NCBI GenBank assembly: GCA_034530615.2
Contig: JAVRCV020000052.1
Span: 236,624-300,623, forward strand
Reading direction: 5' to 3'
Length of the DNA: 64,000 nucleotides
Source: Aulosira sp. ZfuVER01
Lineage (GTDB): Bacteria > Cyanobacteriota > Cyanobacteriia > Cyanobacteriales > Nostocaceae
Shown here one piece after another: positions 76 to 6,438 of this stretch (position 1 is its first letter; the number at the start of each line of letters is the position of its first letter). The position numbers were made by a program, and so were the translations under genes. The notes under the pieces were generated by a model. The model was not told the origin of the DNA. It made no database searches and saw nothing but the letters and a program-made list of their open reading frames with translations.

Positions 76-255
76 ATGGCTAACGCATCAGGTTATGAAC
101 TATTTTCAATTTCTGAAAATTTTTTAACAGAATTATCAGCAGAAGATGAGTCTATAATTACAGGTGGCGGTGGCTCCTGCTACGGTGGAAGTAAGAGCAA
201 GAGCAAGAAGAGCAAGAGCAAGAAGAGCAAGAGCAAGAGCAAAAAGTACTGCTAA
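76..255 (+). CDS. RiPP precursor peptide, 59 aa, with double-glycine leader and Ser/Lys-repeat core (not in ORF track)
   Basis: Translated by hand: MANASGYELFSISENFLTELSAEDESIITGG-GGSCYGGSKSKSKKSKSKKSKSKSKKYC*. GGAGG Shine-Dalgarno at 64-68, tandem TAA TAA stops, ELSxExxxxIxGG leader motif, and it lies directly upstream of a kinase, a HopA1 protein and a C39 ABC exporter. Confidence 0.9.
   Translation: MANASGYELFSISENFLTELSAEDESIITGGGGSCYGGSKSKSKKSKSKKSKSKSKKYC
193..246 (+). repeat. In-frame (AAGAGC)n/AAG tandem repeat encoding the KS-rich core
   Basis: AAG AGC AAG AGC AAG repeated three times, followed by AGC AAA AAG. Confidence 0.9.
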
Positions 256-353
256 TAAACTCTGTAAAGGGCAATTAATAGGACTAGTAGTTATAGCCCA
301 TTAACACAGGTTTCATTCTTTAGCTAAGGCTTCAAACCTATTTTGTTATAAAG

Positions 354-400
354 CTTGTTGTAAAAATTTGGAAACTACCGCTCCATATTTTTACAACAAG
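354..400 (+). terminator. Stem-loop between precursor and kinase (partial terminator or mRNA stabiliser)
   Basis: CTTGTTGTAAAAATTTGGA / TCCATATTTTTACAACAAG form a 19-bp stem with one mismatch and a 9-nt loop, followed by TTTCTT. Confidence 0.65.
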
Positions 401-483
401 TTTCTTGCAAGAATTTTTGGTTAATTTTTTTGATTTTGCGAGCAGTGCAGTTATCAGATTTCTTTTCAAATTAAGTATAGATA

Positions 484-2768: not shown

Positions 2769-2857
2769 TTAGATGATGACGATTAATTACCCTATTACCA
2801 GGGTGCGCGTTATAGCATGATTGTATTTGCTTGATCGGGGATATTTAGGATAGGGAT

Positions 2858-5011
2858 GTGTCTAATCTAAAATACCGAGTTATAAGACAATATAGCGAAG
2901 AAGATTGTGGGGCTGCTTGTATTGCTTCTATTGCCAAATATTACGGACGGAGTTTTGCTCTCAACCGCATCCGTGAAGCGGTAGGCACTGGGCAACTGGG
3001 AACTACTTTGTTAGGTCTGAGACGAGGAATAGAAGCTTTTGGCTTTAATGCACGTTCCGGCAAAGCATCATCCGATTTTCTCCACAAGCTGGAACAAATG
3101 CCCTTACCAGCAATCATCCACTGGAAGGGTAATCATTGGGTGATTTTGTACGGTCGGCGCGGTAAAAATTATATCATTGGCGATCCTGCCATTGGTCTAC
3201 GTTATCTCTCCAAACAGGAGTTAATTGAGGGTTGGACTAATTGGGTACTGCTACTCTTACAGCCAGATCCCAAGCGTTTTTTTGTCCAATCGGATGACAA
3301 AACTAACCACCTGGAGAAATTTCTTCGGTTAATCCTACCCTACCGAGGTGTGATTTTTGAAGCTGTACTTTGTGCCCAATTTATTGGTCTGCTTTCTTTA
3401 GCTTCACCTTTCTTTATTCAAATTCTCACGGATGATGTTTTAGTTAGAGGAGATTTTCAGCTGCTTTTTGGTATAGTGCTGGCAGTTACAGTGATGTATA
3501 TTGTCAGAAGTGGGCTGAAACTAGTAGAAAATATTCTAATAGCTCATTTTGCGCAACGTTTAGAATTAACTTTAACCCTAGAATTTGGTCAACAAATTCT
3601 CCGCCTCCCACTTTCTTATTATGAGTCTCGTCGTAGTGGTGAAATTGTTAGCCGATTAAGAGATATTCAACAAATTAATAAATTAATCGCCGATGCGATC
3701 GTGAGTTTTCCCAGTAAGTTTTTTATTGCCAGCGTTTCTTTTATCTTGATGTTATTTTATAGCTGGAAACTGACAATCACAGGCTTAGCAATCGCTGGGG
3801 TGATGACTCTATCTACAGTAGTTTTTCTGCCCGCACTCCAGCAGAAAAATCGTAAACTCATGGTTTTAGAAGCCGAAAACCAAGGTGTGCTAGTAGAAAC
3901 ATTTAAGGGAGCATTAACGCTAAAAACTACTACAGCTGCTCCGGAATTTTGGGAAGAATTTCAGCGCCGATTTAGTCAATTAGCAAACCTGGAATTGAGT
4001 ACTATAAAAATTGCGATTATTAATAAGCAATTTTCTAGGTTAGTTTCTGATATTGGTGGTGCTACCTTACTATATATTGGTAGTAGCCTGGTGATTAGCA
4101 AAGAGTTAAGTATCGGTCAGTTGCTAGCATTCACTAGCCTCAATTATAATGTTGGGTCTTTAATTGATTTTTTTGTTGACTTTGCAGACGATTTTACTCG
4201 TGTCAGAACAGCGACATCAAGACTTCAGGAAGTCGTCAATTCTACACCAGAAACTCAAGGAGATGCTAACAAATCTTGGACAGAAATTCCTGATAATGCA
4301 GACATTGTTTGCAGCAACCTAAACTTTCACTATCCTGGCAGAGTTGAATTACTAGAGAACTTTTCTGTTACTCTTCCTGGTAGTAAAGTCATTGCTCTAA
4401 TTGGCGCATCAGGTTGTGGTAAAAGTTCTCTGGCAAAAATCATTGCTGGGTTATATACAACTCAATCAGGAAATATCCGCTTTGGCATTTATAACCAGCA
4501 AGATTTGTCTTTAGACTGTCTGCGAAGACAGGTGGTGCTTGTTCCCCAAGAACCTCACTTTTGGAGTCGTTCAATTATTGAAAATTTTCGCTTAGGTTCT
4601 CCCAACGTTTCCTTTAAAAAAATTGTCGAGGCTTGCCGAATTGCTGAGGCTGATGATTTTGTGAGCAAGCTACCCGAAAAATATCAAACCGTTTTAGGTG
4701 AATTTGGTGCTAACATTTCTGGCGGACAAAGACAAAGATTAGCCATAGCTAGAGCAATTGTCAACGATCCACCCATTCTGATTTTAGATGAATCAACTGC
4801 TGGACTCGATCCTGTGAGCGAAGCTAAAGTTTTACATAAACTATTCTCCTATCGTCAAGGTAAAACCACGATTCTCATTAGCCACCGTCCCAGAGTAATT
4901 GAACGTGCTGATTGGATTGTGGTATTAGAGCAGGGTAGGTTGAAAATACAAGGTTCTTTAGAAAAATTGCGATCGCTACCTGGTAAGCATTTAGATTTTT
5001 TAACTCCCTAA
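2858..5011 (+). CDS. Peptidase C39-containing ABC transporter (PCAT, SunT/LanT-like)
   Basis: QYSEEDCGAAC (catalytic Cys), HWVI..DP, transmembrane domain, Walker A GASGCGKS, ISGGQRQR signature, Walker B ILILDE. Confidence 0.95.
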   Translation: MSNLKYRVIRQYSEEDCGAACIASIAKYYGRSFALNRIREAVGTGQLGTTLLGLRRGIEAFGFNARSGKASSDFLHKLEQMPLPAIIHWKGNHWVILYGRRGKNYIIGDPAIGLRYLSKQELIEGWTNWVLLLLQPDPKRFFVQSDDKTNHLEKFLRLILPYRGVIFEAVLCAQFIGLLSLASPFFIQILTDDVLVRGDFQLLFGIVLAVTVMYIVRSGLKLVENILIAHFAQRLELTLTLEFGQQILRLPLSYYESRRSGEIVSRLRDIQQINKLIADAIVSFPSKFFIASVSFILMLFYSWKLTITGLAIAGVMTLSTVVFLPALQQKNRKLMVLEAENQGVLVETFKGALTLKTTTAAPEFWEEFQRRFSQLANLELSTIKIAIINKQFSRLVSDIGGATLLYIGSSLVISKELSIGQLLAFTSLNYNVGSLIDFFVDFADDFTRVRTATSRLQEVVNSTPETQGDANKSWTEIPDNADIVCSNLNFHYPGRVELLENFSVTLPGSKVIALIGASGCGKSSLAKIIAGLYTTQSGNIRFGIYNQQDLSLDCLRRQVVLVPQEPHFWSRSIIENFRLGSPNVSFKKIVEACRIAEADDFVSKLPEKYQTVLGEFGANISGGQRQRLAIARAIVNDPPILILDESTAGLDPVSEAKVLHKLFSYRQGKTTILISHRPRVIERADWIVVLEQGRLKIQGSLEKLRSLPGKHLDFLTP

Positions 5012-5103
5012 TCACCTCTCATCTTCAGTATTTAATACTAGCTTTTGGATAATCCGACGCAAGCGACTGCGATTCAAAAACTTCAATACAATGTGGCAAT
5101 AGC

Positions 5104-6438
5104 CTATAAATCTGTTAGCAACCTTGCTTTTCTTAACATAAATGTCAATACTGTTTCTTGTTGGGCAATAATTTCAGCCGTTACTTCCATCCCAGATTGA
5201 ATAGCATAGGATTGATTGCTTTTGCTCAGATTGAGTTGATCGGGCTGGATGATTACCTCATAGTAAGGTACAGATGCGAGATTGCTATTAGTTTGAGGCG
5301 TAATTGCATCAGATGTAATACCTCTGACAGCACCATTTAGCGTACCGTAATCTGGGTAAGGATAGGCAGAAATCCGCATAATGACTCTACCCTCTGTACA
5401 TTGCTTTACTTGGATGGCTTTACATAGCCGCACTTTACTAATATCAGCAGCAACTACACGAGCTTTAACAACTAAAGGCGCTTGATTGGGGGAAATTTGC
5501 GCGATCGCATCTCCAGCGCGTACCACTTGTCCAGGATTTCGGATTTCTAGTTTCAGGATAGTACCTGTGTCTGAGGCTCGAATGATAGTTTTTTGTAGGT
5601 CTGTTGAGACTTGTTTGAATTCTGTTTGAGCAGTGTTGATTTGGTTTTGAATTTCAACGTGGCGACGGATTAGTTCTTCTTGTTCTTTCTTCAAAATCGC
5701 CAGGGTAGATTCACCCTTGGCTTTTTCTTGAGCAATTCGTTCACTTGCGATCGCTACTGTTGCATTACTAGGGTTAAGTCCAGCTTTGGCACGTTGGAGT
5801 CTAGCCAATGACGCTTTAAACGCCTGTTCTTTCTCCTTAATTTGCAGAGTGGCGATCGCTCCTGTATTCCCCAGTTGCTGATAGCGCTTCATTTCTTCCT
5901 TAGCCAATTCTAGAGCGGCTTCCGCTTCTTGCACTTGTGTCTGAGTAGCGATCTGTTGGTCTTGATAATCCCGTTGGTTGCGACTTAAGTCAGCTTCAGC
6001 AGAGGCGATCGCTCGTTGTATAGAATTAGATTCAGCAGTGATTTGAGTTTTTAAGGCCTTGATTTGGGCAACAATTTGTGCTAACTGTAAATTATTCTGG
6101 TGAATCGTGCCTAAAATTTGGCTTTTTTTGGTTTCCAGTTGAGTAGAGTCAATGTAGGCGATCGCATCCCCCTGATTGACTACCTGATTTTCTTTCACCA
6201 AAATACTTTTGACAATTCCTTCACTAGTTGATTGCACTAAGCGGACATCACCAGTCGGACGGACTGTGGCAGATGCGGTAACGGTGACATTGTACTGAGT
6301 CACCCCAGCCAAAATCAAAGCTACACCTACAGTTCCAATGAGGAATAAACCCCCTAATGTTGTCCAAAGACTAATTGGTGGCAGAAATTGGTCACTGCTG
6401 ATTGGGCGAATCAAGTCGGGACTGGGGTCGCTATGCAT
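5104..6438 (-). CDS. HlyD-family periplasmic adaptor of a type I secretion system
   Basis: N-terminal TM helix, lipoyl-like half motifs (GIVKSILVKENQVVNQGD; GQVVRAGD), long coiled coil, YPYPDYGTLNG, GMEVTAEI. Start placed at ATG 6438 (MHSDP); the track starts it at 6477. Confidence 0.9.
   Translation of the reverse strand: MHSDPSPDLIRPISSDQFLPPISLWTTLGGLFLIGTVGVALILAGVTQYNVTVTASATVRPTGDVRLVQSTSEGIVKSILVKENQVVNQGDAIAYIDSTQLETKKSQILGTIHQNNLQLAQIVAQIKALKTQITAESNSIQRAIASAEADLSRNQRDYQDQQIATQTQVQEAEAALELAKEEMKRYQQLGNTGAIATLQIKEKEQAFKASLARLQRAKAGLNPSNATVAIASERIAQEKAKGESTLAILKKEQEELIRRHVEIQNQINTAQTEFKQVSTDLQKTIIRASDTGTILKLEIRNPGQVVRAGDAIAQISPNQAPLVVKARVVAADISKVRLCKAIQVKQCTEGRVIMRISAYPYPDYGTLNGAVRGITSDAITPQTNSNLASVPYYEVIIQPDQLNLSKSNQSYAIQSGMEVTAEIIAQQETVLTFMLRKARLLTDL

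Follow-up and report, generated by a model that had tools for sequence, protein, structure and literature searches.

Cyanobacterial gene clusters that pair a kinase with a HopA1-family protein have already been catalogued. Family 1A (Eyles et al. 2021) comprises 570 cyanobacterial peptides from 183 clusters, with a double-glycine leader and variable cores (PMC8153245), and such leaders are also found in the type-B class V LanA precursors (Liang et al. 2022), of which, according to that paper, no member has been characterised (PMC9486802). We likewise found no characterised product of a cyanobacterial kinase-HopA1 cluster in the accessible parts of the literature. The locus described here opens a stretch of 64,000 nucleotides from Aulosira sp. 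ZfuVER01 (the window, G000:C52:236624-300623; coordinates are window positions), and carries on the plus strand, in order, genes for a double-glycine precursor, an APH kinase (LanK), a HopA1-fold LanY and a C39 ABC exporter, followed by an HlyD gene on the minus strand. It shares with Family 1A and type B the kinase-HopA1 pair, the conserved double-glycine leader and the variable core, but their typical cluster has several precursors and an Arg-bearing LanY, whereas here there is one precursor and an Arg-less LanY, in this lineage often with a 715-aa exporter. The original prediction proposed a new system, which is not supported for the cluster type, since it was already catalogued and Ser-Lys/Ser-Arg peptides from Stanieria PCC 7437, Pleurocapsa CCALA 161, Scytonema PCC 7110 and UIC 10036, and Cyanobium PCC 7001 are present in the Eyles spreadsheet, in rows of networks 1, 103 and 118 (PMC8153245). 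The main text of the two papers, as far as accessible, does not single out cationic cores or an altered lyase, although the Eyles supplementary figures S26-S29 may discuss such cores. Judged from the sequences, what appears to be new is a LanY lineage without the active-site Arg and Tyr, paired with cores of Ser/Thr-Lys/Arg repeats; no description of this lineage or its product was found in a literature search that covered few subscription papers.

Three other systems are relevant for comparison. The class V LanK/LanY pairs (CaoKY, LxmKY of structure 9DK1, and TvaCD of thioviridamide) have the same folds, and the leader is predicted on the C-terminal helices of the kinase. The present locus differs from them in having no equivalents of Arg187 and Tyr236 in LanY, no LanX, LanC, LanD or LanJ, and a core that is basic rather than hydrophobic. 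Phosphorylated peptides of the ribosomally made and post-translationally modified kind (RiPPs) are rare, with a handful listed in one account (PMC12639078). The second system for comparison is phospeptin (Paoli et al. 2022), whose maturase has mutated elimination residues and whose final product is phosphorylated (PMC9259500). Phospeptin is made by a LanM-like single enzyme and bears two phosphothreonines; the residue loss seen here in the sequence is analogous, but concerns a split APH-fold class V pair, up to nine Ser alternating with Lys, and genes for type I export. The third is diatom silaffin-1A, a short Ser/Lys-rich peptide with all serines phosphorylated, which forms a large zwitterion (PMC4557024). 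Its likeness to the core in the window is one of composition only; silaffin-1A is eukaryotic, routed through the endoplasmic reticulum, and needs polyamine and methyl-lysine changes, the enzymes for which are not in the window locus. By these analogies, the cluster has the build of a class V dehydratase but lacks two of the lyase residues and a cyclase; its most probable mode of action is that of phospeptin, applied to a silaffin-like substrate. We lean towards phosphorylation without elimination. The secreted product would then be a polyampholyte of phosphoserine and lysine, comparable to phospeptin but derived from class V. The features of the locus are the following:

64..68, plus strand: Shine-Dalgarno-like GGAGG, 7 nt 5' of the precursor ATG.
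76..168, plus strand: precursor leader, 31 aa, up to the first Gly-Gly, conserved in 25 aligned precursors.
169..255, plus strand: precursor core, 28 aa and stop codon; product predicted to be poly-phosphoserine/lysine.
484..1623, plus strand: LanK-type APH-fold Ser/Thr kinase.
1680..2768, plus strand: LanY/HopA1-fold protein, predicted pseudo-lyase.
2277-2279, plus strand: codon of LanY Asn200.
2421-2423, plus strand: codon of LanY Gln248.
2858..5011, plus strand: peptidase-containing ABC transporter, 717 aa, with C39, ABC membrane and ABC_tran matches.
5104..6477, minus strand: HlyD-family adaptor, an extra convergent copy, with a likely ATG start at 6438.
L001:9987-11321, minus strand: family-typical HlyD, divergent, ending about 680 bases left of the window.

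LanY matches HopA1 (PF17914, E 4.6e-53), and its predicted structure (pLDDT 89.5) superimposes on LxmY (9DK1_B) with a Z score of 25.6 and a root-mean-square deviation of 2.8 over 295 aligned residues. Active-site residues were mapped through a profile of 18 Arg-bearing LanY aligned to LxmY (9DK1_B, E 4.6e-10). Counted by hand on the profile alignment, the LxmY residues are Arg189, Lys221, Arg231 and Tyr238 of the chain, with spacings of 32, 10 and 17 as in R187/K219/R229/Y236 of CaoY. The LxmY residues F169/Y171 of a review lie at chain positions 171/173, and this offset of two turns the LxmY residues into 187, 219, 229 and 236, the CaoY numbers. Their counterparts in the window LanY are N200, K231, R241 and Q248, so that two of the four active-site residues are kept. 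On the evidence of sequence and model, the LanY fold is preserved and two pocket residues are gone. An assembly error at N200/Q248 is unlikely, since the same residues occur in a separate database record and in four close relatives. In CaoY, as reported by Liang et al., the R187A variant nearly abolishes elimination and leaves mostly phosphorylated peptide, K219A gives only phosphorylated peptide, R229Q is inefficient, and Tyr236 is said to show high conservation in OspF, LanKC/L and LanY alike (PMC9486802).

The kinase matches APH (E 4.5e-9), and all eight motif residues checked are intact (K53, E70, H216-x-D218-x-K220-x-x-N223 and D243-W-E245), as are the kinase motifs at nearly all cationic loci. 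Against the LxmK family NF038156 it scores 82 bits, under the cut-off of 315; a profile of kinases finds 9DK1_A weakly (E 0.003), the single sequence matched no solved structure, and there was no match to DUF4135. In the complex model, residues 3-21 of the leader (with Leu9 and Phe10) lie on kinase helices 279-294 and 346-369 with a score of 0.78, versus 0.02 for the best control; of 157 solved pairs 116 reach that mark, as do 2 of 215 that are mismatched. The runs have 47% or more of their contacts in common, and the partner pLDDT is no lower than 44. The leader is thus predicted to dock on LanK, although this pass may rest on likeness to LxmKY. The CaoKY model has the leader at the same C-terminal helix region of the kinase (PMC9486802).

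The precursor frame (76-255, 59 aa), with its strong ribosome-binding site, was confirmed from the sequence as first reported, including the core composition of 9 Ser, 11 Lys, 2 Cys, 2 Tyr and 4 Gly. Four consecutive glycines follow the leader, and the cleavage site is placed among them by inference. A chance origin of the Ser-Lys frame can be dismissed, because among the 30,446 open reading frames (ORFs) of 40-120 aa in the genome only 6 reach 14 or more Ser/Lys in 20 residues, and the window ORF is at the top with 19 of 20. The leader is under purifying selection, with a ratio of nonsynonymous to synonymous substitution rates (dN/dS) of 0.11 over 31 codons against Calothrix sp. NIES-2100, and is of the same type as those of paralogous precursors in the genome. 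No family in Pfam or NCBIfam matched the precursor, and an Atlas search returned only matches under 0.8. A precursor profile made from five sequences hits 15 of 389 genomes in the host family (10 strongly) and 27 database proteins, among which are the sequences of the query itself. With 25 sequences, the profile hits 66 of 401 genomes in the host order, mostly through the leader only, and a metagenome scan gave 3 loci. The named relatives are cyanobacteria. The search for similar neighbourhoods that the original prediction proposed shows the same arrangement in several genera, with an HlyD, a single precursor, the kinase, the HopA1 protein and the exporter. These loci, some of them in named Calothrix and Rivularia records, occupy different chromosomal sites, and each has a precursor of Ser/Thr-Lys/Arg repeats.

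The related cores consist of (SK)n, (SR)n, (TR)n or (NKS)n repeats, often with a Cys-Gly-Cys-x-x-Tyr-Cys-like tail, and in 48 of them 315 of 395 Ser/Thr stand beside Lys/Arg. Since 13 of the 48 have no Cys and several have Arg in place of Lys, the charge pattern, and not ring chemistry, is the feature that is kept. The computed charge of the window core changes from +11 to about -7 at full phosphorylation, so partial phosphorylation would give a near-neutral polyampholyte.

To relate the LanY residues to the cores, 106 loci were reduced to 101 distinct LanY. Six second-copy pairs, in which the kinase is a pseudo-kinase, were set aside, as were 17 LanY that have no precursor within 3.5 kb. A core was called cationic above +0.175 charge per residue, a cut-off chosen after inspection of the data. 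The remaining 78 LanY comprise 53 with Arg and a near-neutral core, 24 without Arg and with a cationic core, one without Arg beside a neutral Gly-rich core, and none with Arg and a cationic core. Tyr is kept in 68 of 68 Arg-bearing LanY, whereas 3 of the 24 LanY from the cationic set have it. In the best-scoring 120 of 961 database homologs, all four residues are present in 104 and Arg is missing in 16, of which 2 have the Tyr. In a held-out set of 18 loci picked by kinase score (19 LanY), none of the 16 intact LanY has a Ser/Thr-Lys/Arg repeat in its two nearest cores, and the sole Ser-Lys-rich core adjoins an Arg-less LanY; the remaining entries are an Arg-less protein of 819 aa that has no precursor and a second-copy pair. 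The canonical group (60 loci) was defined by its five marker residues, and their 60/60 conservation is therefore circular and not evidence. Two or more precursors occur in 39 of these 60 loci; of the 25 cationic loci, 24 have a single one.

In a quick tree of the kinases (100 rows), 21 Arg-less rows fall in one clade (Shimodaira-Hasegawa-like approximate likelihood ratio test, 100) and the other 4 in a second. A tree of 64 LanY rows, which included 30 of the 60 canonical rows and from which second copies, a truncated row and eight trait columns were removed, is compatible with a single origin of Arg-less LanY. In 20 main-clade rows, six residue types occupy position 200 and 11 occupy position 248, a heterogeneity as expected of released constraint. 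LanY is nevertheless under purifying selection, with dN/dS of 0.14-0.32 in 8 cationic pairs versus 0.09-0.33 in 10 canonical ones. This agrees with the dependence of CaoK and LxmK on their LanY partner for solubility (for CaoK: PMC9486802). The corresponding values for LanK are 0.16-0.31.

From these data the following sequence of events can be proposed. LanK would bind the precursor leader and phosphorylate several core serines. LanY, without two conserved lyase residues, would not remove the phosphates, so that there would be little or no elimination, and it would be retained as a stabilising and core-holding subunit of the kinase. The C39 domain would then cut at Gly-Gly, and the peptide would leave by type I export through HlyD. 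Outside the cell the product could be a polyampholyte that binds cations, mineral or sheath polymers, and the Cys/His/Tyr tail could serve in metal binding or cross-linking; both are guesses, with lower odds than the preceding steps. A wider version of this proposal, in which lyase loss turned a class V dehydratase into a pure peptide kinase, and silaffin-like phosphoserine/lysine or phospho-Ser/Thr-arginine zwitterions serve as an extracellular mineral-, metal- or sheath-binding biomaterial and not as an antibiotic, is by analogy conceivable, and we regard it as tentative and rather doubtful. The original prediction took LanK/LanY for a working split dehydratase and left open mass shifts of +80 or -18 Da; the pair is present, but the active-site comparison tilts towards phosphorylation.

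Several observations weigh against phosphorylation without elimination. The residue mapping goes through LxmY and motif spacing, and not through the CaoY sequence itself. The catalytic base Lys231 persists in 18 of 20 LanY from the main clade, the same rate as the median retention of 0.90, and in all 16 Arg-less proteins among the best 120 homologs; Arg241 is kept in 14 of 20. New acidic residues, which the window LanY also has (E180 in 80%, D235 in 65% and D237 in 60%), suggest, at the sequence level, a remodelled pocket and not simple decay. The association with cationic cores depends on the post hoc cut-off, most cationic loci come from precursor searches, and the trees indicate that it reflects one or two evolutionary origins, so the cases are not independent. 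Two Arg-bearing loci of the held-out set have short Arg-rich cores at +0.29 and +0.31, above the cut-off, and these exceptions rule out a pure net-charge rule. In addition, the leader has Glu at position -7, where the double-glycine consensus has Leu, and the locus of the closest relative, Calothrix sp. NIES-2100 (L002:9175-11677), has an 832-bp deletion that removed the last third of lanY and the C39 domain of the exporter, with the precursor and kinase frames still open. Finally, in CaoA a Lys next to the phosphoserine hindered elimination, which was ascribed to repulsion by R187/K219 (PMC9486802).

This hindrance supplies a motive for re-tuning the lyase and hence a real rival: LanY could have dropped its own Arg against repulsion, with the substrate Lys/Arg supplying the charge, to give a reactive dehydroalanine-lysine peptide, possibly with lanthionine or lysinoalanine cross-links. 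The retention of Lys231, together with that of His35 and Asp243 (each in 19 of 20 main-clade LanY), the acidic residues that flank the pocket and the adjacency of core Ser/Thr to Lys/Arg are all in its favour. However, Arg241 is lost in 6 of 20 main-clade LanY and Lys231 in 7 of 24 of the whole cationic set, and K215 (70%) is the only new common basic residue. We consider a re-tuned lyase unlikely and place it second, in view of the diverse substitutes, the loss of the Tyr along with the Arg, and the Arg-only, Cys-free cores, which could form neither lysinoalanine nor lanthionine and leave dehydroalanine no partner.

Phosphorylation could also be a temporary charge mask on a polycation that would otherwise bind nucleic acids of the producer or jam the exporter, with outside phosphatases freeing an active cationic peptide (antimicrobial or polyanion-binding). 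Protamines are an example of basic proteins masked by phosphorylation. Lys/Arg are about as many as Ser/Thr in the cores, so partial phosphorylation would neutralise them, and the single precursor and dedicated exporter subfamily of the cationic loci agree with this idea. It is nonetheless improbable: no phosphatase gene recurs beside the loci (in the ORF lists and ten Pfam-scanned neighbours), and at L066:6225-10825 an HlyD and a related exporter accompany an Arg/Tyr/Gly-repeat precursor with a Ser-free core, with neither a kinase nor a lyase within 17 kb, which suggests that cationic peptides can be exported without a mask. Still less credible is a decaying modifying pair, with export of the unmodified peptide, or a silent locus. 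The NIES-2100 deletion points in that direction, as do an in-frame TAA in the leader of the Ser-Lys precursor of a Rivularia metagenome-assembled genome (L010:7624-7825; a pseudogene or a sequencing error), the long branches of cationic-lineage LanY, and the 20 precursor-picked loci, of which 13 have a LanY and 7 have none in the fetched span, some of these at contig ends. Against it stand the five open frames of the window locus, the intact kinase motifs at nearly all cationic loci, and the dN/dS values of LanY and LanK.

With phosphorylation without elimination as the preferred reading, two residues would divide the kinase-HopA1 clusters: the majority would dehydrate, and one lineage, which has a core type of its own, is predicted to phosphorylate. 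If true, this would provide a kinase, guided by the leader, with which basic repeats could be densely phosphorylated. Loss of elimination would be a second way to phosphorylated RiPPs, zwitterionic peptides of the silaffin type would have a candidate counterpart in bacteria, and there would be a warning that a kinase-HopA1 annotation need not imply dehydration.

The export module shows the features of peptidase-containing ABC transporters and type I secretion at the sequence level, namely a Cys-His-Asp C39 protease, ABC domains, HlyD and a Gly-Gly leader. The C39 residues Q11, C17, H93 and D109 are present, as are the Walker A, signature, Walker B and H-loop motifs, and, within the spans fetched, an exporter with 62-100% identity is found at 16 of 25 cationic loci versus none of 60 canonical loci. 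The genome has four further exporters with 60-64% identity to that of the window (contigs C32, C41, C16 and C49); three adjoin other double-glycine-type small proteins, with no kinase-lyase pair. The HlyD originally noted downstream is present, but on the minus strand and convergent, whereas in most relatives HlyD is at the position left of the window. The in-window and upstream HlyD are 67% identical, with a synonymous divergence (dS) of 1.7. The NIES-2100 HlyD has a dS of 0.35 to the upstream copy versus 1.44 to the in-window copy, which is absent from its locus; it is therefore orthologous to the upstream copy, and the in-window gene is an old extra paralog.

Matches to APH, PF17914, C39/ABC and HlyD bear out the gene assignments made beside the precursor, and with them the description as a minimal cyanobacterial RiPP locus with type I export and no decarboxylase or cyclase. 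The suggestion that more genes lie left of the window was right for the family-typical HlyD; beyond it, no RiPP enzyme is present in 12 kb, which otherwise hold two small unknowns, Hsp33, a 678-aa unknown, a flavin oxidoreductase, an M16 peptidase, a fructosamine kinase and a methyltransferase. This gene content, and the lack of a recurring extra gene in larger ORF lists of related loci, rule out further cluster enzymes on that side. Neither a cyclase (LanX or LanC) nor the Cys decarboxylase LanD was found in the 12 kb upstream or just downstream, no lysine-modifying genes were seen in the locus, and a promoter/terminator scan gave nothing above shuffled sequences.

Other kinase-HopA1 arrangements were also observed. 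An orphan pair with no precursor found nearby (G000:C11:17990-20476, L182) recurs at L170 and L174-L179; its LanY keeps Arg, Arg and Tyr, but all 8 copies examined have Gln in place of the catalytic Lys, and kinases of this type (frames of about 412 aa) recur through the host family, with at least one kinase match in 36 of 36 and 45 of 45 genomes. It is possibly a housekeeping kinase/pseudo-lyase acting in trans. At L005, L006, L007, L138, L143, L146 and L191, a second pair of a pseudo-kinase (Asn for the catalytic Asp) and a degenerate LanY stands beside an intact one, with Cys-bearing precursors, possibly as a LanX-like cyclase arrangement. At L181:333-6995 (G000:C17), an intact pair neighbours a 1101-aa LanM-like protein (DUF4135 and LanC-like) and two Cys-bearing precursors of the same leader type. 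The 819-aa frame at L186:5751-8210, which has a HopA1 profile match at the site of a kinase-search hit, no catalytic Arg, Lys or Tyr and no precursor found, is probably a kinase-lyase fusion. A further pair (G000:C55:79214-87762) has five leader-type precursors, and its neighbours are presumably, from their motifs, a Nif11-like precursor and a radical-SAM-like protein. In the window, the cluster is followed at 6595-14501 by housekeeping genes, including a universal stress protein, histidinol dehydrogenase, and frames that we take to be ribosomal S20, TatD and rpoB.

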